Sequence record: PZ386965.1
DNA length: 64,000 nt
DNA from: a phage
Strand: one strand, 5' to 3'
The notes under the pieces were generated by a model that saw nothing but the letters and a program-made list of their open reading frames with translations, ran no database searches and had not been told where the DNA came from. Positions 1-61,632 of the stretch are shown here, in pieces. The number at the start of each line of letters is the position of its first letter. Within the stretch, counting starts at the first letter, position 1. A program made the translations under genes and the position numbers.

Positions 1-546
1 CATGACTAGAGCTTCAGAACCAGGATTTTTCTCAACGAATTCACGTGCTTGGTTATGGGCTTCAAGTTCACTTAGTAAACCACTTCGTTGGCATCCACGG
101 TCTTGAGTACCCTGTTCAGATAAAAAGACGACGATGTATTTTTCATCGTCATACGGTTTAGACGGTTGAGCAAATGTTCCTTTACTTCCAAAAGGAGAGT
201 TATGACGCCACATCACGCCGTGAGGAGTTTCAACCTTCGTATATTCGTGCGGGCCATTTTTCTTAATTTCTTGATGTGGAACTTCGTAGACCTTAGGGTT
301 AGGACATTCAATAAAATGCTCATCTAAATCAGTCGAGAATATTAAAGTGAAACAATTACTGAATTTACCGACACCTGCCTGATAAATTTTACCTTCAGAA
401 GTTCTAATTTCACAAACCGAGCCGGCATCAGTAACTTCTAAAACTTCAAAAGGCTCGATAAGGTCATATGAGAACATGTTTTTAAGGCGTGGAGTAATAT
501 CCCCATTTTTAAAATTCATTTTATAAAAAGTATTAACTTTAAACAT
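1..546 (-). CDS. hypothetical protein, 3' end truncated by window edge (30.x-like early ORF)
   Basis: Open minus-strand frame from ATG at 544-546 (GAGGA SD upstream) running off position 1; not in ORF track because it lacks an in-window stop. Confidence 0.4.
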   Translation of the reverse strand, partial: MFKVNTFYKMNFKNGDITPRLKNMFSYDLIEPFEVLEVTDAGSVCEIRTSEGKIYQAGVGKFSNCFTLIFSTDLDEHFIECPNPKVYEVPHQEIKKNGPHEYTKVETPHGVMWRHNSPFGSKGTFAQPSKPYDDEKYIVVFLSEQGTQDRGCQRSGLLSELEAHNQAREFVEKNPGSEALVM

Positions 547-581
547 AATTTCCTCAGTGGGAGCTTCGGCTCCCAGTTAAA

Positions 582-947
582 TTAGATATCGAATTCGTTA
601 AGAACTACATCAAAGATTGCTTCGAGATGTTCAGGTTTAGCTCGGTTACTCAAGATATGACGAATCCAAGTTTTAACCAGAAGTTTACGATTAACACCAT
701 TCCAGCAAGGATGAGTACCTAAATCGCGCTGACGGAAATCATCATCTAATGCAATTTTAAAATTTGAACCTTCCATCGTGATTGAAACCGTGATGCCATT
801 TTCAAATCGCATATAAACGTAATTAGGAGTCATGCACTGTTCGATTTCACAAACTGTACCGTTTTCGTGTTTCCATAAGCAAATAACTTCAGAAGAACCA
901 GCAATACCGTTAGAAACATATTTACGTTCGAAGTTGATGTAGTTCAT
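582..947 (-). CDS. hypothetical early protein (121 aa)
   Basis: ORF track; preceded by early-promoter motif at 984-1017. Confidence 0.5.
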   Translation of the reverse strand: MNYINFERKYVSNGIAGSSEVICLWKHENGTVCEIEQCMTPNYVYMRFENGITVSITMEGSNFKIALDDDFRQRDLGTHPCWNGVNRKLLVKTWIRHILSNRAKPEHLEAIFDVVLNEFDI

Positions 948-983
948 TTTATTCTCCAGATGTTTAAGTTGTTTGTTGGTACA

Positions 984-1017
984 GGTCTATAATAACATAA
1001 CCTGTACCAAAGTAAAC
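984..1017 (-). promoter_or_regulatory. sigma70-type early promoter
   Basis: Minus strand reads GTTTAC-17 nt-TATTAT; spacer lies inside a 10-bp perfect inverted repeat (TTGGTACAGG...CCTGTACCAA). Confidence 0.45.
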
Positions 1018-1021
1018 ATTT

Positions 1022-1393
1022 TTATTTGATTTTTGTCCACTTAGCTGAATCAATAACACCTTTTGCTTTAATCTTCTCAATTAATGACTCTGCGCGATTT
1101 CTGGCATTTTCGTACCATACAACATCTTCAGAGTAACCAGTTTCTTCATCTTCGTAAGTTTTAGAACGAATACAGCCATAAACTGTAGAATTCAGGCGGT
1201 AAATTTCACCAGTGAAAAAGTTTTCGATTTCGATATGATAACAAAAATCGTCTGAAGGGCCATCAGGAGTTGTACAATAAACCACATCACCTTGAACTGA
1301 ACGAACCATCCACTGTAACTCGTTAACAACTTGAGATTTATATCCATCATGGTCACGGCATTTAATTGTAGCATTTAAATTGATAGTGTTCAT
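1022..1393 (-). CDS. hypothetical early protein (123 aa)
   Basis: ORF track; preceded by early-promoter motif at 1431-1463; N-terminus resembles neighbour 582-947. Confidence 0.5.
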   Translation of the reverse strand: MNTINLNATIKCRDHDGYKSQVVNELQWMVRSVQGDVVYCTTPDGPSDDFCYHIEIENFFTGEIYRLNSTVYGCIRSKTYEDEETGYSEDVVWYENARNRAESLIEKIKAKGVIDSAKWTKIK

Positions 1394-1430
1394 TTTATTC
1401 TCCGGTTGTTTTATTGATTAGGTGGTACAA

Positions 1431-1463
1431 GTCTATAGTAACACATCCTACAGGAGAGTAAAC
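1431..1463 (-). promoter_or_regulatory. sigma70-type early promoter
   Basis: Minus strand GTTTAC ... TACTAT followed by AGAC. Confidence 0.45.
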
Positions 1464-1495
1464 ATCTTTTTAAACTTTTTCTGCCCTAAACGCAC

Positions 1496-1517
1496 AAAAG
1501 GGAGACCGAAGTCTCCC
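1496..1517 (-). terminator. UUCG-tetraloop hairpin, intrinsic terminator-like
   Basis: GGGAGAC-UUCG-GUCUCCC then U-run on minus strand, after the small basic ORF. Confidence 0.5.
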
Positions 1518-1522
1518 TAAAA

Positions 1523-1702
1523 TTATGCAACAACCTTTCCAAAACGAGAAGCATCATCTCGAAGAACTGCACGTGCTCTGCGCATGATCTTCTCAACTGT
1601 TTGATTAATACGAGAGTTCGACCCACGCTTGTATCCAGCGCGTTTAGAGGTACCATCAACTTTCTTTTCAACTGCTTTCTTTGCTTTAGCTTGTTTTGCC
1701 AT
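1523..1702 (-). CDS. small basic protein (MAKQAKAKKAVEKK..., about 59 aa)
   Basis: ORF 1523-1744 trimmed to internal ATG at 1702; Lys/Arg-rich; followed by UUCG hairpin. Confidence 0.4.
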   Translation of the reverse strand: MAKQAKAKKAVEKKVDGTSKRAGYKRGSNSRINQTVEKIMRRARAVLRDDASRFGKVVA

Positions 1703-1999
1703 TATAAATTCTCTTTTAAATGAAAATGCAGGACTTATTGGCATTGCCTGCGCAAGCCCTCAAGGGGAACATAGGTTTTGGATATTTAACGACAGGATAA
1801 CCATAAACCTCGTCATCATACCAACCACGACTTAGACAGATAACCTTTTTCTGACGCGTGATAGTACAAAATACATTCAAGAGGTACACCGTAAAACTGC
1901 CGGGGTCTTAAAACTATAATGATTCGCAAATCATTAATCATACAGTTCGACGGCTCCTCGATTTTCTAGCCGCACTTAAGGTAGCGAATCACCTAAAAC

Positions 2000-2248
2000 T
2001 TATTTAAGGGTAATAACAAAATGACGTACTGCTTTACGAGCTGCAGAAGCCAAAGGCTTAGCATATTTCAGTTCATCTTTTGCTTCCAGTTCAGAGGCCA
2101 AAGCTGCCTGTACCGGGTTCAGATGTTTGAAATAACGCAGGATTTCCAGTGCTTCGGCTTCAACATCAATCGACGCGCCGTAGTTTTCGTGACCGTTATT
2201 CCATGCGTTTCGTTGCAGTTCAAGAGCGTGTTGTAATTGTTTAATCAT
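2000..2248 (-). CDS. rIII: rIII lysis-inhibition accessory protein (82 aa)
   Basis: 82-aa ORF adjacent to gene 31 as in T4; sequence recognisable as rIII. Confidence 0.7.
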   Translation of the reverse strand: MIKQLQHALELQRNAWNNGHENYGASIDVEAEALEILRYFKHLNPVQAALASELEAKDELKYAKPLASAARKAVRHFVITLK

Positions 2249-2364
2249 TTTAAATTCTCAATTCGAGATAATATTTAGTAGCCACGTTCGTCTGAATTTC
2301 ACCTTCTTTCGACAAGTCTCTCAGTTGTAGGCTACCGCTTAGAAGAGTGTTCTCTTCATATAGT

Positions 2365-2372
2365 TATTTATA
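2365..2372 (-). promoter_or_regulatory. possible late promoter TATAAATA (rIII)
   Basis: TATAAATA on minus strand about 117 nt upstream of rIII. Confidence 0.35.
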
Positions 2373-2705
2373 TCACTTATAAAGACACGGAATAGCTTTA
2401 TAGTGGCATGTTACGAATTTCTGTTTAATTTCTTTAGGTTGTTTAAGTCCCAAAGCCACAAATGGATGTGGAACATTTCGAATTTGTCCAACTGGTAGTG
2501 AAGTCAAATCACCGACTTCAACAAAACCTTCAGGAACATCAGGACCTACAGAATGAACTACACATAGTTCAGGAACTTCACCTTGAACACGTTTACCAAT
2601 CACAAGTCCTGATTCGGTAACTTCTTCATCACCTGCTTGAGCGGGTTCAGAAACCAGAATGACATATTCACCAACAGCACGAATTGGGAGTTGTACTTCA
2701 GACAT
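2373..2705 (-). CDS. 31: gp31 co-chaperonin (GroES analogue)
   Basis: 110 aa, [28 protein letters not shown]... recognisable as T4 gp31. Confidence 0.85.
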
Positions 2706-2735
2706 CTTATTTCCTTGTTGTTTGACGATAGATTA

Positions 2736-2760
2736 ATAATACCATACTATTCGTAAAGCA
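2736..2760 (-). promoter_or_regulatory. possible MotA-dependent middle promoter for gene 31
   Basis: Minus strand ATGCTTTA (MotA-box-like) then 12 nt then TATTAT. Confidence 0.35.
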
Positions 2761-2762
2761 TA

Positions 2763-3071
2763 TTACATAAGAAGCAAACGTTCTACCGGAGTACCATCAA
2801 CAGAAATTACTTTATCAAGGCGGAAAGAACGCCACTGACCTAACTCGGTATCGAATGCTCGAACTGATTCACGAGGTTCATAACGAACTTCTGTTGCCGG
2901 ATTGTTATTTTCATATTTGACTTCAAGTTCATCGCGCGAAGCAAACATAGTGCGTACCTCGCCGTTAGCCTTTTCAAATACAACACAATGAACGCCTACA
3001 GACAGAATAGTTTTAATACGTTCACGAAGAACCATAGTTTCTTGTTCAGTTAAAATCATATTATTCACCAC
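2763..3071 (-). CDS. hypothetical protein (31.1-like by position)
   Basis: ORF track; lies between cd and gene 31. Confidence 0.45.
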   Translation of the reverse strand: MVNNMILTEQETMVLRERIKTILSVGVHCVVFEKANGEVRTMFASRDELEVKYENNNPATEVRYEPRESVRAFDTELGQWRSFRLDKVISVDGTPVERLLLM

Positions 3072-3642
3072 AAAAGTTTCGGATTTGTTCCCAATTCAGA
3101 GAACGAAGATTATTACGAGAGTACTGAATTACTTCAATACCGGCTTGTTTTAGAATGTCTGCCCAATTTTCAGGAGATCTGTCATATAATTCTGCATATA
3201 CAACCTTTTTAATACCTGACTGTGTAATAGCTTTAGTGCAATCAGGACATGGAGAAAGCGTCGTATACAACGTAGCACCTTCAATAGAATTACCTTTACG
3301 AGCTGCAAACAAAATTGCATTCAATTCCGCATGGATTTCATTATTAGCAGACCATGCACTATGAGCGGCCCGATGTTCTTTAGCCAAAACAAAATTATCC
3401 ACCCGTCCAAATGCTGTAGTGCCTTCTTTATGCCCAGCAACGATGACCGGGCTTGGTTTATTCTTCAACCAACCGTTTTCGGATGCATGTTCGCAACAGT
3501 TTGTACCACCTGAAGGAGAGCCATTATAACCTGTAGAAATAATGCGTCCATCTTTTTCAATGACGGCACCAACTTTCCATGAACAACATTTTGATTCTTG
3601 AGAAATCAGATAAGCAATCTGAAGATATGTGCTAGCTTTCAT
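3061..3642 (-). CDS. cd: dCMP deaminase
   Basis: 193 aa with zinc-dependent deaminase motifs HAELNAI and SPCPDC. Confidence 0.9.
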   Translation of the reverse strand: MKASTYLQIAYLISQESKCCSWKVGAVIEKDGRIISTGYNGSPSGGTNCCEHASENGWLKNKPSPVIVAGHKEGTTAFGRVDNFVLAKEHRAAHSAWSANNEIHAELNAILFAARKGNSIEGATLYTTLSPCPDCTKAITQSGIKKVVYAELYDRSPENWADILKQAGIEVIQYSRNNLRSLNWEQIRNFCGE

Positions 3643-4634
3643 TATTGAACCTTATTAATATGAGTTAACAGCTCTTTAGTTTGTTCCCAACTGATGCACG
3701 CATCGGTAACGGAAACGCCATAGGACATATTATCAGAAATTTTTTGATTTCCTTCATGTAGGAATGATTCTATCATAATTCCTTTGACCAAATCATTAGC
3801 TGCTAAATTTTTACCAATACCAATTTGATTGCTATAATGCCCAGCAGCGTTTGCATGGCTACAGTCAACCATTACATAATGATTCAGACCTACGGCCCTT
3901 GCTTTGTTAGAAGCTTCTTGAATATCAGAAGAATGATAGTTCGGGCCATTGGTCCCGCCACGCAATACGATATGCGTATTCTGATTACCTTCAGCTTCAA
4001 CAATGCCTACAGTACCATCGACGTCCATACCCATATACCGATGAGGCCAGGCGGCACTATACATCGCGTCTGTAGCTACTTTAATAGAACCATTGGTTGC
4101 GTTCTTGAAGCCTACGCACATCGGTAGACCTGAAGCAATTTCACGATGTGTCTGACTTTCAGTCGTACGGGCGCCAATAGCAACCCATGAGAAAATACCA
4201 GAAAGATACTTAATCGTGAATGGGTCTAATACTTCAGTTGCTAATGGAAGTCCCATACGTAGAAGTTTACGACACAATGTTCGTGCAACTATAAGACCGT
4301 GGTTCATATCAAAACTTCCGTCAAGATATGGATCATTTACAAGACCTTTCCAACCTACGGTAGTTCGAGGCTTTTCAAAATAAACGCGCATCACTAACAG
4401 AACATTAGGAAGACGAGTTTGAAGTTCAGCCAGACGTTTGCCGTATTCAACAGCAGCAATAGGGTCATGAATTGAACAAGGACCTACAACAATAAGTTTG
4501 CGTGGGTCTTCACCATTCATAATCGAATTAACTTGTTCGCGATGAGAAGCCACTTGTGATGCGTAAGCTTCCGACAAAGGAATAATCTCAGCCAGTTCTT
4601 TTGGAGAAATAAGTTTTCCGACGACAGGTAACAT
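3642..4634 (-). CDS. 3-deoxy-7-phosphoheptulonate (DAHP) synthase, class I (AroG/AroF-like)
   Basis: 330 aa with IVVGPCSIHD, MRVYFEKPRTTVGWKGL, GARTTESQTHRE motifs of AroG-type DAHP synthase; stop overlaps cd start (TAATG). Confidence 0.9.
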   Translation of the reverse strand: MLPVVGKLISPKELAEIIPLSEAYASQVASHREQVNSIMNGEDPRKLIVVGPCSIHDPIAAVEYGKRLAELQTRLPNVLLVMRVYFEKPRTTVGWKGLVNDPYLDGSFDMNHGLIVARTLCRKLLRMGLPLATEVLDPFTIKYLSGIFSWVAIGARTTESQTHREIASGLPMCVGFKNATNGSIKVATDAMYSAAWPHRYMGMDVDGTVGIVEAEGNQNTHIVLRGGTNGPNYHSSDIQEASNKARAVGLNHYVMVDCSHANAAGHYSNQIGIGKNLAANDLVKGIMIESFLHEGNQKISDNMSYGVSVTDACISWEQTKELLTHINKVQ

Positions 4635-56741: not shown

Positions 56742-56990
56742 TTATTCTTTTTCGCGAATAATAATTACTTGTTGAGGCTGCTGAGCCGATTTCTTTTCGG
56801 CAACGATAGACCAAATTAAAGTTCCAATCCAACCAACCATCGTCCAGTTAAAGAGTAAAGATACAAAGAAGATTGCTGTTGTGCTTTTTGTGCCACGAAT
56901 AAGTGCGATTACCCAAGGCAACATGTAAATGATGATTGAACCAATACCTGCGATTAAAACTGCTACTGAACTAGCCACGAATAATTCCAT
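56742..56990 (-). CDS. small integral membrane protein (82 aa)
   Basis: Two or three predicted TM helices by eye. Confidence 0.45.
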   Translation of the reverse strand: MELFVASSVAVLIAGIGSIIIYMLPWVIALIRGTKSTTAIFFVSLLFNWTMVGWIGTLIWSIVAEKKSAQQPQQVIIIREKE

Positions 56991-57051
56991 GTTAATTTCC
57001 TCTTGATTTGTTATGTTTATAGTATCTTGGTTTAACTTTGGTGTAAACCAA

Positions 57052-57420
57052 TTAATTAAATTTGTTTAAACGTTCAATACACTGGACGTAGTTATTCGCG
57101 ATTTGTTTCTGGGTAGGCTCTTTACCAGTTGTTTCAACATAGCGAATAAATGCGATTTCAGTAGCCTGTAGACAATGTTCTTTAACGCGTTGTTCTTTTG
57201 ACATAGCTACAGTATCAGAGTCACGATAACGTTGAGCATGAGCATCAGCTTGAATCATTCGATTACCTACAGTAACCGGGTCTTCCACTTCAACTTTAGG
57301 TTGGTTGTACTGTTTAACATTCGGATTGTAAATCAGTTGGCCAACGTTATTAGGGATAAAGCCATGAGCACCACATCCGGTTAATCCAAATACCATTGCT
57401 AAAGCGATTAATTTTTTCAT
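57052..57420 (-). CDS. lipoprotein (122 aa)
   Basis: ORF 57052-57480 trimmed to MKKLIALAMVFGLTGC lipobox start with AGGAAA SD; promoter motif lies in the untrimmed N-terminus. Confidence 0.5.
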   Translation of the reverse strand: MKKLIALAMVFGLTGCGAHGFIPNNVGQLIYNPNVKQYNQPKVEVEDPVTVGNRMIQADAHAQRYRDSDTVAMSKEQRVKEHCLQATEIAFIRYVETTGKEPTQKQIANNYVQCIERLNKFN

Positions 57421-57448
57421 TTCAATTTCCTCTATAGTTGATAGGTCT

Positions 57449-57478
57449 ATAGTATCACTACCATAGACCCCTGTAAAC
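57449..57478 (-). promoter_or_regulatory. sigma70-type early promoter (lipoprotein gene)
   Basis: Minus strand GTTTAC-18 nt-TACTAT; inverted repeat GGTCTAT/ATAGACC. Confidence 0.4.
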
Positions 57479-57490
57479 AATTATTTTATT

Positions 57491-57631
57491 TTATTCCTCG
57501 TCTTCATGCTCGTAAGCATGTTCTTCAGATTCACGGTCGCAGTCTAAACAAGTCGCATTATCATATGCATCGAAAACAGCTTCGTCTTCATAGACGCTAC
57601 AACCACACACTACACATTCTACTTCTTCCAT
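57491..57631 (-). CDS. small acidic CxxC...CxxC zinc-ribbon protein (46 aa)
   Basis: ORF 57491-57694 trimmed to MEEVECVVCGC... start (AGGAAA SD) just downstream of dmd stop. Confidence 0.4.
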   Translation of the reverse strand: MEEVECVVCGCSVYEDEAVFDAYDNATCLDCDRESEEHAYEHEDEE

Positions 57632-57632
57632 T

Positions 57633-57836
57633 TTAGATTTCCTCTTTACGCCAATCGGATTCAAAAACTTTCTTATCATCAACAAATGCTTCAACTAAAG
57701 CTTTATTTACTTCAGCAAATTGAGAAGTGGCCCGTAGGATTTGGTCTTTATCAGACACGTCCATGGTAACTTCTTTGGTAAACATATTCCCATTTTCAAA
57801 CCAACCAATAAACAACACTTTAGCCATATTTTCCAT
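57633..57836 (-). CDS. dmd: Dmd antitoxin (discriminator of mRNA degradation)
   Basis: ORF 57633-57896 trimmed to MENMAKVLFIGWFENGNMFTKE...; matches Dmd core. Confidence 0.65.
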   Translation of the reverse strand: MENMAKVLFIGWFENGNMFTKEVTMDVSDKDQILRATSQFAEVNKALVEAFVDDKKVFESDWRKEEI

Positions 57837-57837
57837 T

Positions 57838-58155
57838 TTAGATTTCCTCACAGAAGGCCCATTCAGCGTGATAAACTGTAGCACCTTTAGTATCATTCAT
57901 TTGAACTACGTCTACCGGAGAAATTACTCGATAGAGACGTGGTTCACCTCCATAAGAGTGTGCTGCTCGTCCTGCATAAATCTTTGCTAAACCGATATCT
58001 TCAGTAAAGAATACACGATCCAAGTTTTTCTTACGTCCAGTTTCAGACAGAACTCCTGTTTCTTCAGGAGGACAAAGCATGTTTTCGATGTTAGCTGAAC
58101 TACTTGAACCGTGATAAAAAATCTTAAATTCTGCTTTACAATCGATGGTTTTCAT
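57838..58155 (-). CDS. small protein with possible minimal ADP-ribosyltransferase (Arr-like) fold
   Basis: 105 aa; FYHGSSS near N-terminus, VFFTED and LYRVISPVD segments; resemblance judged by eye only. Confidence 0.35.
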   Translation of the reverse strand: MKTIDCKAEFKIFYHGSSSSANIENMLCPPEETGVLSETGRKKNLDRVFFTEDIGLAKIYAGRAAHSYGGEPRLYRVISPVDVVQMNDTKGATVYHAEWAFCEEI

Positions 58156-58181
58156 TTTGTTCTCCAGTAGTTGATAGGTCT

Positions 58182-58210
58182 ATAATAACACAACTACCGG
58201 AGAAGTAAAC
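58182..58210 (-). promoter_or_regulatory. sigma70-type early promoter (Arr-like ORF)
   Basis: Minus strand GTTTAC-17 nt-TATTAT then AGACCTATCAA. Confidence 0.4.
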
Positions 58211-58585
58211 TTAAAAATGTAATTTAGATATATCTGCGTTGATTTCGTTTTGGTTTGCGTCGTATGCAATTAAACGAACCGCTTTAGATGGGTCATTCAA
58301 TGCATAGAAATGATGGAACATTGCTCGAACGATATCACCATTTACGAGTTCTACCTGGATAGGAGAACCTTTTTCGAGTTGGAAATGTTCATAAGCTTTG
58401 ATGGTTCGCAGATAATCAAGTTTTTGATTTCCGGCTCCGACAATTTGTACGATACGTTTGCCCATGTTTTCCATACGAGATACAATAGTTTTAGGGGCAA
58501 GAATAACGTAGGTTGCCAGTGGAGAAACTACTTCAACAGTTGTGTTTTCTGTGATTGCAGTAAAAATTGCTTGAGACATATTCAT
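58211..58585 (-). CDS. hypothetical protein (124 aa)
   Basis: ORF track; own SD and early promoter motif at 58616-58645. Confidence 0.45.
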   Translation of the reverse strand: MNMSQAIFTAITENTTVEVVSPLATYVILAPKTIVSRMENMGKRIVQIVGAGNQKLDYLRTIKAYEHFQLEKGSPIQVELVNGDIVRAMFHHFYALNDPSKAVRLIAYDANQNEINADISKLHF

Positions 58586-58615
58586 AATGTTTTCCTCTTG
58601 GTTGGTGTAAGTACA

Positions 58616-58645
58616 TCATATCATGCCTAGAGGAAGATGTAAACC
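58616..58645 (-). promoter_or_regulatory. sigma70-type early promoter (124-aa ORF)
   Basis: Minus strand GTTTAC-18 nt-TATGAT. Confidence 0.35.
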
Positions 58646-58650
58646 CCGAA

Positions 58651-58668
58651 AGGAGACCGAAGTCTCCT
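58651..58668 (-). terminator. UUCG-tetraloop hairpin after gene 41
   Basis: AGGAGAC-UUCG-GUCUCCU on minus strand; downstream U-run imperfect. Confidence 0.4.
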
Positions 58669-58673
58669 TTTTA

Positions 58674-60116
58674 TTAAAATTTTAACTCGTTGGCTAAGCT
58701 ATCTAGGTCAGCACGTGTTGCTTTGGCTTTACCTACGCGTTCCGTACGATTCACCTCTGCCTGACGCATCTGAGCACCTGCGTTTTCATTTACTGTGTTA
58801 GGTGTGTTCATGCCTTCTTGCTCAATCTCAACCCATTTCTGATTGCCTTTACGTACACCCATCAAGAACTTGTTCCACTTATTCTTATCACCGTATCGTG
58901 ATTTGATTTGTTTGATAAGTTGTTGTTCAGCTTGTGCAAGTTCTTCGGTTTCAATTACGGCCAACATGAAATCTGCCGTTGCTGGTAAACCTGCTGATTC
59001 TGCGATATCACTCATGTTCATGTCTGAAGCATCCCATGCTGCACGTCCTACTTGAGCTGCAGTCCATAGAACTGTTTCAGATTCTACTGCTAATGCACGA
59101 AGTTCTTCTGCGATAGCTTTAACTAATGTGTAGCTATTTTCAGTGTAAACTCTGATACGACAAGACCCACAAATACCTAAGTAATCAACCATGATTACAG
59201 ATGGCACAAAGTTCTTCTTAAGTTTTAACTCATTAAGCAATGCACGAAATGTATTAGCATTAGCTCCACCAGTAGGATACTGTTTAACTACTAAACGTCC
59301 TAATGTGGATTTTGAACGCCATTTTTCCATCTTGGCTTTATATTCAGCATAAGATACGTTACCGTCATCAATATCATCAAGTGATACGTCAAGCATGTTT
59401 GCATCTATACGCTTAGCGCAAACTTCTTCAGCCATTTCCATTGAAATATAAAGAACATTATGGCCTGTTTGAAGATAATCTGCAGCAAGTGAACAAAGGC
59501 CTAAAGATTTACCAACGTTAACACCAGCCATTAAAACATTCAGTGTACCGGTTTCAGCACCACCTTTAGTGATTTTATTCAGAATGTTTAATTTGAACGG
59601 GACCTTACGTGCTTTGTTCAGATAAGAAAGCCAGCGTGCTTCATAGTCTTCCATCCAGTCATGCCCAACATAACTATCAAACGAAATTGAAAGTGCTTGA
59701 CGCATAATATCAGGAATAGCTCCTACGTCAGGCATTTTCTTGTTACGTTGTTCTGGAGGTAGTTCAGCATTAGACTGAATCTCAATGATTTTGGACGTAG
59801 CATTATACATCGCTTTTTGCTGGACATATTTCTCAGTTTCTTTAACCAACCATTCGTGGTCTTCAGGAGTATCAGCCAATTTTTCAATTAGGTCTGAAGT
59901 TCCTTTATATTCGGCTTCAGTTAAAGAACTGTTATCTAAAGCCACCTTTAATGCATTGATAGATGGCATTGCATTATATTCGTTAACGTGGCTCTTTATA
60001 ATTTTAAAGACGTTTTTTGCCGGTCCACGCTCAAAATACTCAGAATCCATATAAGGCCAGACCTTAGAAAAATAAGCCTGGTCATATACTAGATGAGACA
60101 AAATAATTTCTACCAC
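58674..60116 (-). CDS. 41: gp41 replicative DNA helicase (DnaB-like)
   Basis: 480 aa; Walker A ...GVNVGKSLGL... and RecA-like core. Confidence 0.9.
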   Translation of the reverse strand: MVEIILSHLVYDQAYFSKVWPYMDSEYFERGPAKNVFKIIKSHVNEYNAMPSINALKVALDNSSLTEAEYKGTSDLIEKLADTPEDHEWLVKETEKYVQQKAMYNATSKIIEIQSNAELPPEQRNKKMPDVGAIPDIMRQALSISFDSYVGHDWMEDYEARWLSYLNKARKVPFKLNILNKITKGGAETGTLNVLMAGVNVGKSLGLCSLAADYLQTGHNVLYISMEMAEEVCAKRIDANMLDVSLDDIDDGNVSYAEYKAKMEKWRSKSTLGRLVVKQYPTGGANANTFRALLNELKLKKNFVPSVIMVDYLGICGSCRIRVYTENSYTLVKAIAEELRALAVESETVLWTAAQVGRAAWDASDMNMSDIAESAGLPATADFMLAVIETEELAQAEQQLIKQIKSRYGDKNKWNKFLMGVRKGNQKWVEIEQEGMNTPNTVNENAGAQMRQAEVNRTERVGKAKATRADLDSLANELKF

Positions 60117-60125
60117 GATAACTCC

Positions 60126-60488
60126 TTAAAAGAATTTAAATTTTTTCTTGGCCCGTTCATTAAAAGCTTGTTGTACTTGCATTGTAACACATTTTTCAAC
60201 ATGCGGTGCAAGTTCTGCTTTTCTGTCCTGGTCAAGAACTGCAAAGTCCATTACGATTTTACCATCAACCCAGTCTAGTTTTGTAATATAGACTATATGA
60301 TGAGAACCGTCTTCAAGTGTAATCAGAATCTCTTGAATGACATTTTCCATTGCTGAACGGATAATTTTAAGAGATTCATTAAACACTCGTTCTTTGCGAA
60401 TGTCTTCCCCTTCCGAAGAAGGGGATTCATCAACGATTTCTAGATTTAAATCATCGAGATTATTCATCGAAATCTTCCATTTCGTCAA
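60126..60488 (-). CDS. 40: gp40-like protein (by position between 41 and uvsX)
   Basis: 120 aa ORF. Confidence 0.45.
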   Translation of the reverse strand: MTKWKISMNNLDDLNLEIVDESPSSEGEDIRKERVFNESLKIIRSAMENVIQEILITLEDGSHHIVYITKLDWVDGKIVMDFAVLDQDRKAELAPHVEKCVTMQVQQAFNERAKKKFKFF

Positions 60489-61632
60489 GGTCGTTTTCTA
60501 TATCTGCTGCAGACGGAGCATCAGAAGCTTTAACCGGAACTTTAGTTGTTGCTTTGCAATTAATAAGGTCGTTAACAGCGTCATCAACTTCTTTAATAGA
60601 AGAGATAGCACCTAGTTTATATTTAGTTTCAATTGCATCTCGGAAAGGTTTGTGTTTAAACAAAGGTCCCCAGAATTCTACACAATCAGTAGCTTTAGCA
60701 CGCCACGATTTCTCTTCACGAATCATTTCGCCTGTTTCTTCGTCAAGGAATTCACGAGCATACCAACCGGCTTTAGGCTTAACAACAAATCCAATTTCAG
60801 TTGCCATTTCTAACAAGCCACTGAATGGGTCGATACCACCATCAAAATTAACTGTGATTGGGAAAGTAGATTTTTCTTTAACTGTACGAGATTTTTCTGC
60901 TTTCAACGTGAAGTCATAACCGGTCAATTCTGTACCTTCTTTAACCTGACGTTTAGAGATAAAGAATACAGTGTTAGCAGAGTAAAGAATACCTGTACCA
61001 CCACCCATAATCTCTTTAGGATATAGTCCGCCGATTTCCATTGCTGTATGGTTGATTGCAACACACGGAATATCTTTAATAGTCAGATACGGGGTCACAA
61101 TACGGAACAGAGATTTAAGTGCCTTAGCACGAGACATATCACCTACGACTTTCTCATTCAATGCATCTTCGGTTTCTTTCTTAGATGCAGTATTACCGAT
61201 TGAATCGATAAAGATAATAACTTTATCACCGCGTTCAATCGCGTCAAGCTGATTAGTCATATCAACTTTAAGTTGTTCGACGGACTGAATTGGTGTATGA
61301 ACTACACGGTCTAAATCAACACCCATTGAACGAAAATAAGATTCTGAAGCACCAAATTCTGAGTCATAGAACAAACAGATTGCATCTTTATATTTCTTCA
61401 TATACGCTGCAACCATAGTTAGTCCAAACAGCGTTTTAAAGTGTTTAGAAGGTGCAGCAAAAATAGTCAAGCCTGATTGCAATCCTGCATTCAGAGCACC
61501 ACCTAGTGCAATATTCAACATCGGAATACGAGTAGGGACTTCATCACGATTATTAAACAGCTTAGACTTAGTCAAGTCTGCAGTCATTTTAGAAGTAGAA
61601 GCTTTAATCAGACGAGATTTTAAATCAGACAT
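60460..61632 (-). CDS. uvsX: UvsX recombinase (RecA-like)
   Basis: 390 aa; RecA-fold with Walker A-like ...FAAPSKHFKTLFGL... and acidic C-terminus. Confidence 0.9.
   Translation of the reverse strand: MSDLKSRLIKASTSKMTADLTKSKLFNNRDEVPTRIPMLNIALGGALNAGLQSGLTIFAAPSKHFKTLFGLTMVAAYMKKYKDAICLFYDSEFGASESYFRSMGVDLDRVVHTPIQSVEQLKVDMTNQLDAIERGDKVIIFIDSIGNTASKKETEDALNEKVVGDMSRAKALKSLFRIVTPYLTIKDIPCVAINHTAMEIGGLYPKEIMGGGTGILYSANTVFFISKRQVKEGTELTGYDFTLKAEKSRTVKEKSTFPITVNFDGGIDPFSGLLEMATEIGFVVKPKAGWYAREFLDEETGEMIREEKSWRAKATDCVEFWGPLFKHKPFRDAIETKYKLGAISSIKEVDDAVNDLINCKATTKVPVKASDAPSAADIENDLDEMEDFDE

Follow-up and report, generated by a model that had tools for sequence, protein, structure and literature searches.

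A predicted ADP-ribosyltransferase-fold protein related to Arr, encoded beside dmd in a Mosigvirus phage and conserved across T4-type phages

T-even phages are the classic model of host takeover by ADP-ribosylation, in which the ADP-ribosyltransferases (ARTs) Alt, ModA and ModB act at or just after injection on host RNA polymerase, translation factors and other proteins. The subject of this report is a different putative ART, encoded by an open reading frame (ORF) of 105 codons, here called ORF105, that lies next to dmd in a 64,000-nucleotide stretch of phage DNA (sequence record PZ386965.1; this whole stretch is referred to as the window). Both the ART nature of ORF105 and its place next to dmd had been recorded before on computational grounds, in GenBank records and by Iyer, Burroughs, Anantharaman and Aravind (2022; PMC9503650), who described a "p0068-family ART + Dmd" pair in Escherichia, Shigella and Salmonella phages and read it as toxin and antitoxin. 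Because that description fits the locus, the ART assignment was anticipated in print. The same authors interpreted the architectures of phage polyvalent proteins as injected effector arrays. Nothing experimental on ORF105 turned up in a literature search that covered RB69ORF040c/041c, Arr-like ARTs of phages, p0068 and ARTs in counter-defence; the HIDEN-SEQ study covers T4, Bas37 and Bas54, and the word "Mosigvirus" is absent from its text. What is new here is the residue-level mapping of ORF105 onto Arr, including the replacement of Tyr by Phe and an unusually placed Glu that is invariant throughout the family, together with the conservation of the protein beyond that of the replicative helicase and the separability of ORF105, dmd and a further neighbor, ORF124, with a mapped breakpoint.

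The window is a segment of a Mosigvirus (RB69-like T-even phage) genome, and approximately 1.3 kb around ORF105 and ORF124 are 99.6% identical to Escherichia phages LF82-4 and LF82-9 and 99.5% identical to Shigella phage Shf125875. In T4, dmd lies 58 bp from gene 41, with no gene between them. A reading of the window from its letters alone (the sequence-only reading) had placed two extra ORFs in this interval, and both are present; the same two are annotated in RB69 as RB69ORF041c and RB69ORF040c. Since homologues occur in 610 phage records for ORF105 and in 135 for ORF124, these are real genes and not chance ORFs. The segments FYHGSSS, VFFTED and LYRVISPVD, in which the sequence-only reading had seen a likeness to rifampin ART, are all found in the ORF105 translation, the first of them as FYHGSSSS. 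The features central to the argument are as follows.

57838-58155, minus strand: ORF105 (RB69ORF040c homologue), 105 residues, a minimal, stand-alone Arr/KptA-like ART-fold protein
58111-58113, minus strand: ORF105 codon H15
58042-58044, minus strand: ORF105 codon E38
58033-58035, minus strand: ORF105 codon R41
58009-58011, minus strand: ORF105 codon F49
58003-58005, minus strand: ORF105 codon T51
57976-57978, minus strand: ORF105 codon Y60
57633-57836, minus strand: dmd, 67 residues (Pfam Dmd, E 7e-23)
58211-58585, minus strand: ORF124 (RB69ORF041c homologue), 124 residues (phrog_10668)

Several independent lines of evidence agree, indicating that the resemblance between ORF105 and Arr reflects real homology and not chance. 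Structure prediction followed by Foldseek, proposed with the sequence-only reading as a check for an ART fold, bore the proposal out. The AlphaFold2 model, computed with 41 homologues, is confident (predicted local distance difference test, pLDDT, 87.9; predicted template modeling score 0.79). Its strands at residues 13-18, 48-51, 72-81, 84-87, 94-97 and 99-104 and its helix at 54-68 form the split beta-sheet core that binds nicotinamide adenine dinucleotide (NAD+) in ARTs. In the Protein Data Bank (PDB), Arr was the top Foldseek match, followed by Tpt1 and KptA entries. A separate comparison also turned up Rhs ART toxins, OspC3, PARPs, DarT, pertussis-like toxins and RES toxins further down its list. 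Among predicted viral structures, the third match was "Ms Rifampin ADP-ribosyl transferase" (E 1e-7), behind the protein itself and its Proteus phage orthologue.

Sequence profiles point in the same direction. The sole Pfam match of ORF105 was Arr-ms (PF12120; E 0.22, 12.2 bits), covering residues 13-80 and model positions 1-61 of 99. A search of 1.84 billion representatives with the family profile retrieved 215 proteins, many of which carry the domain, approximately 95 residues long, embedded in proteins of 300-3900 residues. In the embedded relatives P0129, P0135, P0149, P0151 and P0172, this same domain scores 26.9-31.5 bits, above the Arr-ms gathering score, and in relatives the Arr-ms match reaches model position 67 of 99. 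Widened with distant relatives, the ORF105 profile found only Arr proteins in the PDB (E 0.013). A direct sequence search of the PDB returned nothing at E values up to 10, and neither NCBIfam nor PADLOC gave a match. The close-family profile, run against the PDB, gave only chance matches to SH2 domains. Judged by profile and model together, ORF105 is an ART-fold protein whose nearest sequence family is Arr.

Aligned with Arr, H15-G16-S17 of ORF105 corresponds to H19-G20-T21, E38 to E40, G40-R41 to G42-R43, F49 to Y49 and T51 to T51. The His-Gly-Ser/Thr signature of NAD+ binding is present in the first strand (beta1, residues 13-18), where H15 and G16 are invariant and S17 nearly so. In the second strand (beta2, residues 48-51), the aromatic position is occupied not by Tyr but by an invariant Phe, F49, followed by the invariant T51. 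At this place, ARTs of the H-Y-E clade have a Tyr, and those of the R-S-E clade an S-T-S motif, that stacks on nicotinamide. Across distant relatives, H15, G16, E38, F49, T51, A57, Y60, G69 and G70 are invariant, and P30, R41, N44, V48, I59, A61, A64 and G91 nearly so. E38 is the sole acid conserved throughout the family and sits in an S-E-x-G-R-K-K-N-L-D loop before beta2 that is modeled with lower confidence (mean block pLDDT 73-82). By comparison, D82 of the LYRVISPVD segment is Asn in some Acinetobacter phage orthologues and variable in distant relatives, and D88 also varies. In ARTs generally, the catalytic Glu, Asp or Gln is carried on the fifth strand.

The sequence-only reading had proposed a minimal ART of the H-Y-D type resembling Arr. 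The ART fold and the relationship to Arr stand, with FYHG and VFFT forming the NAD-pocket strands beta1 and beta2; the H-Y-D type does not, as the Tyr is an invariant Phe and D82 varies. Roles for the H19-Y49-D84 residues of Arr-ms were reportedly assigned by Baysarowich and co-workers in 2008, and of this set ORF105 keeps the His, replaces the Tyr with Phe and has no conserved counterpart of the Asp as far as sequence can place it. ORF105 is also shorter than Arr (105 versus 143 residues) and lacks the C-terminal third of the domain, a part of Arr that helps to enclose rifampicin. Because of the Tyr-to-Phe change, the missing conserved acid at D84 and the absent last third, ORF105 is best described as a member of the ART superfamily related to Arr-ms-type domains and not as a rifampicin ART; nor is it filed under KptA/Tpt1, since it lacks the RNA-binding lobe.

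One near-identical orthologue, UniProt/BFVD A0A088FVK8 of Shigella phage Shf125875, is listed at 149 residues. As the ORF in the window is bounded by a stop at 105 residues and has a good Shine-Dalgarno (SD) sequence, the longer entry probably has an over-long, mis-called N-terminus or else reflects a sequence difference.

ORF105 is widespread and strongly conserved. By tblastn, the commonest names among its 610 records are Escherichia (216), Klebsiella (116), Acinetobacter (68), Aeromonas (62), Enterobacter (29), Shigella (17), Cronobacter (14) and Vibrio (14) phages, and a few of the records are already labeled "putative ADP-ribosyl transferase" or "rifampin ADP-ribosyl transferase." Between the window and Tegunavirus, Kanagawavirus and Gaprivervirus, ORF105 is 84-85% identical, compared with 66-68% for the gene 41 helicase, and identity is still 63-70% in Aeromonas and Acinetobacter phages. 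Conservation of this strength is unusual for an accessory gene and points to a functional protein whose substrate is conserved, with horizontal spread as a possible contributor to the high identity.

The signals around the gene suggest early expression. They are listed here together with those of ORF124.

58160-58165, minus strand: SD sequence of ORF105, GGAGAA, 4 nt before the ATG (read from the sequence)
58182-58209, minus strand: promoter-like site for ORF105 and dmd, TTTACT-16-TATTAT with TG before the -10 element (consensus scan)
58590-58597, minus strand: SD sequence of ORF124, GAGGAAAA (read from the sequence)
58615-58643, minus strand: promoter-like site for ORF124, TTTACA-17-TATGAT with TG before the -10 element (consensus scan)

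The promoter-like sites are matches to a sigma-70/T4-early-like consensus with an extended TG and not mapped transcription starts; the region holds 15 of them, versus 8.1 +/- 2.8 in shuffled sequences. Each of the two ORFs has one SD sequence and one early-type consensus match, as the sequence-only reading had described. For dmd, the consensus scan found no promoter-like site of its own. Its SD sequence (GAGGAA) is made of the last codons of ORF105 (..C-E-E-I-stop), and its ATG begins 1 nt past the ORF105 stop; in RB69, the corresponding junction is a 4-nt overlap. Given the lack of a separate dmd promoter, the placement of its SD sequence inside the end of ORF105 and the 1-nt spacing, ORF105 and dmd are predicted to form a single early operon in the window phage.

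Based on these data, the reading held with rather better than even confidence is that ORF105 is a mono-ADP-ribosyltransferase, expressed early and catalytically active, whose substrate is a conserved host macromolecule. An early promoter of its own would drive its production early in infection, on a transcript shared with dmd, and the protein would move ADP-ribose from NAD+ onto a conserved host protein or nucleic acid. H15-G16-S17 in beta1 and F49-x-T51 in beta2 would build the NAD pocket, with the invariant, flexible E38-x-G-R41-K-K-N44 loop as the best candidate for substrate binding or catalysis. Its action, whether in host takeover or in counter-defence, would parallel that of T4 Alt, ModA and ModB and of the ART domains of injected phage polyvalent proteins. 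An active enzyme is favored because the NAD-pocket residues and the basic loop are invariant and an early promoter is predicted, and because there are precedents in Alt/ModA/ModB and AcrIF11 and homologous domains in polyvalent proteins. Inactivation of rifampicin by ORF105 is unlikely, and a role in antibiotic resistance is likewise unlikely because the gene is carried by a lytic phage under an early promoter.

Several points weigh against an active transferase with such a target. The Arr-ms score of ORF105 itself, 12.2 bits, lies below the Pfam gathering cut-off of 25 bits. The Tyr of the Arr H-Y-D set (Y49) is an invariant Phe, and no conserved acid is found at the position of Arr D84 or at that of the catalytic Glu of other ARTs, these positions being placed by sequence only; E103 is invariant inside the T-even clade only. 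With Phe for Tyr and no conserved acid, ORF105 could therefore be a binder of NAD or ADP-ribose that performs no transfer. The class of target is a guess, and the tight coupling of ORF105 to dmd leaves a functional link between the two possible.

Such a link is part of a bolder proposal, rather unlikely as a whole, in which ORF105 adds a fourth early ART, distinct in mechanism, to those of T-even-type phages. This minimal enzyme would be of an H-F type, with the functional acid moved to the E38-x-G-R-K-K-N loop; its target would be a conserved host nucleic acid or RNA-handling component, and its activity would be tied to Dmd in Mosigvirus-like phages. Dmd would then be either a regulated partner or the second arm of a two-pronged attack on RnlA/LsoA-type RNase defences, and a universally conserved target would explain why ORF105 is more conserved than the replicative helicase.

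The coupling to dmd can also be read as that of a phage type II toxin–antitoxin pair, as Iyer et al. (2022; PMC9503650) proposed, with the ART as a toxin, perhaps RNA-modifying, and Dmd as its dedicated antitoxin. Co-transcription and translational coupling would agree with this (one promoter-like site, the dmd SD sequence in the end of ORF105, the 1-nt spacer), as would the adjacency of the two genes in Mosigvirus, Gaprivervirus and Dhakavirus. The order of the genes is that of rnlA-rnlB, in which the toxin gene comes first. Taken with what follows, a dedicated pair is nonetheless unlikely, the distribution of the two genes being the first difficulty. The sequence-only reading had thought anti-defence functions plausible from the position beside dmd; this ART–dmd adjacency is confined to those three genera. 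A tblastn search with the window Dmd, at an E limit of 0.01, found 799 phage records, nearly all from Escherichia, Shigella, "Enterobacteria", Yersinia, Salmonella or Citrobacter phages; the comparison was made on the ten commonest organism names, and very divergent Dmd homologues could escape it. Klebsiella, Acinetobacter and Aeromonas phages are not among these ten names (only six minor names fall outside them), whereas at least 300 of the ART records come from Klebsiella, Acinetobacter, Aeromonas, Enterobacter, Cronobacter and Vibrio phages, groups that are not among the commonest Dmd bearers. The two sets of records overlap only in Escherichia, Shigella and Salmonella phages. At nine sampled loci of other genera, Dmd was found within 2-3.5 kb of the ART in none, and several hundred Dmd-bearing records, T4 included, have no detectable ART homologue. 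The idea that a Dmd-like small ORF always follows the ART was also rejected, as the next gene elsewhere encodes spackle, a small hydrophobic peptide or an unrelated protein.

The second difficulty is the absence of co-evolution between the two genes. Compared with RB69, the ART of the window is 98.1% identical and ORF124 99.2%, whereas Dmd is only 52.4% identical (and 65% identical to T4 Dmd). At the DNA level, identity to RB69 is approximately 98-100% through ORF124 and ORF105 and falls to 62-68% at 57850, at the ORF105/dmd junction; no alignment was obtained over 57459-57652, where RB69 gp61.4 is replaced, after which identity returns to 98%. The dmd allele of the window is itself rare, being present at 95% identity or more in only 10 phage records. 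The disparity between ART and Dmd, with the break in identity at their junction, indicates that the dmd module was exchanged by recombination beside an unchanged ART. By sequence comparison, both distribution and allele exchange thus weaken the published idea of an ART toxin with a Dmd antitoxin.

The junction itself suggests how such an exchange could occur. An exact direct repeat of 19 nt stands at both the ORF105/dmd and the dmd/next-gene junctions and coincides with the drop in identity to RB69.

57831-57849 and 57626-57644: direct repeat TTCCATTTTAGATTTCCTC (minus strand GAGGAAATCTAAAATGGAA, comprising the SD sequence GAGGAA, the ..EEI stop and ATG GAA)

As a consequence of the repeat, ORF105 and Dmd both end in EEI, and the genes that follow them both begin with ME. 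The repeat may be a site at which modules are exchanged by recombination. The three genes, ORF124, the ART and dmd, are shown to be separable modules, with a mapped recombination breakpoint. In the Dhakavirus Salmonella phage vB_SalM_ABTNLsp5, two tandem Dmd paralogues follow the ART (locus positions 2319-2513 and 2514-2717); the first of them, 64 residues long and annotated as "translational repressor protein," matches the Dmd profile (E 3.6e-24) and ends in ..EEI.

The nature of the substrate separates the preferred reading, an active transferase acting on a macromolecule, from one in which ORF105 is an Arr-like transferase of small molecules, either a rifamycin-type compound or an immune second messenger. 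Arr is the sole PDB family found by sequence profile and the top Foldseek match, some GenBank records carry the name "rifampin ADP-ribosyl transferase," and small molecules are among the targets that Iyer et al. consider for viral ARTs of the Arr family. The Arr-ms match, however, stops at position 61 (67 in relatives) of 99, leaving out the C-terminal part of Arr, and both the basic RKK loop and the occurrence in polyvalent proteins point to macromolecular targets, which makes this explanation improbable. The hosts (enterobacterial, Aeromonas and Acinetobacter) are not known to include rifamycin producers.

About as improbable is a non-catalytic ART-fold protein, acting as a sponge or decoy for NAD+, ADP-ribose or an immune signal, or as a stoichiometric binder of a host protein. 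Sponge proteins are a known counter-defence strategy of phages, and ORF105 is very small, is probably abundant early, and has Phe in place of Tyr and no conserved acid at the canonical third position. Yet the invariance of the NAD-pocket His-Gly-Ser/Thr, F-x-T, E38 and R41 is what would be expected of an enzyme, a Phe might still stack on nicotinamide, and the related domains adjoin NUDIX and 2H domains, which process ADP-ribose products. A KptA/Tpt1-type RNA 2'-phosphotransferase, or an enzyme ADP-ribosylating RNA ends in phage RNA repair, is very improbable: only 75 of the 179 KptA residues align, corresponding to the NAD lobe; 105 residues are too few for the two-lobe architecture with its N-terminal RNA-binding lobe, which in KptA/Tpt1 carries most of the catalytic Arg-His-Arg-Arg tetrad; and the domains of polyvalent proteins are usually functionally independent.

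The other extra gene, ORF124, had been left without an assignment by the sequence-only reading, and none has emerged: it belongs to phrog_10668 (E 5e-86), a family of unknown function, and Pfam, NCBIfam, PADLOC and the PDB gave no assignment. Among its 135 phage records, 133 are at least 95% identical and two fall below 60%, one of these being a Dhakavirus homologue at 36%; the gene is limited to Mosigvirus and Dhakavirus. Only six clusters were found in 5.8 billion proteins, and a profile search for relatives added just four. Structure prediction from a three-sequence alignment gave no fold (pLDDT 35.8). A histidine-triad (HIT) fold was considered and dropped: the top match of the profile in the PDB was a histidine-triad protein (E 0.7), with VILAP and FHH falling on HIT motifs, but hhalign against human HINT1 gave a probability of 0.4%, and there was no Pfam HIT match.

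The proposal that ORF105 and ORF124 form a two-gene cassette does not hold. They have separate promoters, occur in 610 and 135 records, respectively, and the majority of the ART-bearing phages lack ORF124. In Gaprivervirus, Tegunavirus and Kanagawavirus, the ART directly follows gene 41 and ORF124 is absent, and in Mosigvirus and Dhakavirus it follows gene 41 and ORF124. Because the distributions differ and ORF124 has its own hairpin, promoter and SD sequence, the two are neighbors with separate histories. ORF124 is an independent, lineage-restricted early gene, and the pair are neighbors in a hyperplastic region rather than a functional cassette.

58649-58670, minus strand: GC-rich hairpin of 9 bp with a UUCG tetraloop, between the gene 41 stop and the ORF124 promoter (RNA fold)

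This hairpin was seen on folding 58586-58680 (minimum free energy -22.8 kcal/mol, z -2.0). It was not called in a simple terminator scan because only three U follow the stem, and it is probably an mRNA 3' stabilizer or weak terminator ahead of the ORF124 promoter. Arbiol and co-workers are said to have described, in 2010, mobile promoter-early stem-loop (PeSL) cassettes in T4-type phages that drive ORF shuffling. The hairpin followed by the promoter at 58615-58643, upstream of ORF124, resembles such a cassette; upstream of ORF105, no hairpin was found. Promoter/leader segments are also repeated in the region, those at 57435-57461 and 58168-58194 being 89% alike over 27 nt and those at 56973-57026 and 57403-57456 being 74% alike over 54 nt. 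Similar segments precede ORF105, the imm.1-like gene and imm, and these repeated regulatory cassettes recall PeSL.

All genes of the stretch lie on the minus strand, in the transcription order uvsX, gene 40, gene 41, ORF124, ORF105, dmd, a 46-residue ORF, imm.1-like, imm and sp. The neighbors are listed below.

60460-61632, minus strand: uvsX
60126-60488, minus strand: gene 40
58674-60116, minus strand: gene 41 helicase (gp41)
57491-57631, minus strand: very acidic, Cys-rich ORF of 46 residues with a CxxC...CxxC pattern (MEEVECVVCGCSVYEDEAVFDAYDNATCLDCDRESEEHAYEHEDEE; phrog_13952, unknown function)
Downstream of the 46-residue ORF, minus strand: imm.1-like lipoprotein gene (DUF5481), then imm, then sp

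The 46-residue CxxC...CxxC ORF adjoins dmd downstream, in the place of RB69 gp61.4, and may encode a small zinc-binding protein.

In other phages, the ART occupies various settings. In a Klebsiella phage it has srd and an RNA ligase gene close by, in a Proteus phage tRNA genes, and in Aeromonas phages either tk or inh/30.6/srd. Of three Acinetobacter phages examined, two (AB1I1M-1 and Acj61) have a gene pair encoding phosphoribosyl pyrophosphate (PRPP)-synthetase-like and nicotinate/nicotinamide phosphoribosyltransferase (NAPRT)-like proteins one to three genes upstream of the ART. The pair resembles a phage module for NAD+ reconstitution or salvage and offers a possible NAD+-supply context for the ART. 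A tiny hydrophobic ORF whose start shares 4 nt with the ART stop is present in a Klebsiella phage (58 residues) and in two Acinetobacter phages (32 and 38 residues); these ORFs look like membrane peptides and are not Dmd-like.

AB1I1M-1 locus, 1-2800: PRPP-synthetase-like and NAPRT-like genes with the ART
Acj61 locus, 1-3797: PRPP-synthetase-like and NAPRT-like genes with the ART
Klebsiella phage locus, 2815-2991: tiny hydrophobic ORF after the ART
AB1I1M-1 locus, 2797-2895: tiny hydrophobic ORF after the ART
Second Acinetobacter phage locus, 3788-3904: tiny hydrophobic ORF after the ART

The wider interest of ORF105 lies in the finding that 610 T4-type phages, T4 itself not among them, carry an additional predicted ART of a clade different from that of the classic takeover enzymes. 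The protein is small, easily expressed and under unusually strong constraint, and since its relatives occur in injected polyvalent proteins, finding its target would probably uncover a conserved weak point of the host or a counter-defence step. Were Dmd the antitoxin of this ART, its biology would have to be reconsidered, a prospect that distribution and recombination render less likely. ORF124 is one more orphan early gene in the variable region downstream of gene 41.

Compared with known systems, ORF105 shares most with Arr (PF12120; PDB 2hw2, 9iaf) and differs from it in length (105 versus 143 residues), in having Phe at the place of Y49 and in the lack of a D84 counterpart by sequence. Its core also resembles the C-terminal NAD+ lobe of KptA/Tpt1 (PDB 9ld3, 7kw9), although the second-strand His of KptA is Phe in ORF105 and the whole N-terminal RNA-binding lobe is absent. 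AcrIF11 (PDB 6kyf), an anti-CRISPR ART of phages and plasmids, shows no significant sequence similarity to ORF105 that could be found, and it acts on Csy1 of type I-F CRISPR, for which no connection with this phage group is evident. T4 Alt, ModA and ModB are likewise ARTs of T-even phages, with the same timing logic as that proposed here, but they are far larger proteins of the R-S-E clade, whereas ORF105 has an H-type beta1, is unrelated to them in sequence and is absent from T4 at this locus.

The closest described pair, the p0068-family ART with Dmd (PMC9503650), fits the locus by its verbal description. That pair was read as toxin and antitoxin, whereas the allele exchange and distribution seen here argue for a local, loose linkage. 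Direct homologues of ORF105 are found in the Arr-ms-type ART domains of polyvalent proteins (E 1e-18 to 1e-27 against the ORF105 profile), whose companions include portal, ART-PolyVal, NUDIX, 2H/Acb1-like, GNAT, Toprim and LPD23 domains. In those cases it forms one section of a giant protein that is probably injected, whereas ORF105 is a free protein of 105 residues with a predicted early promoter.

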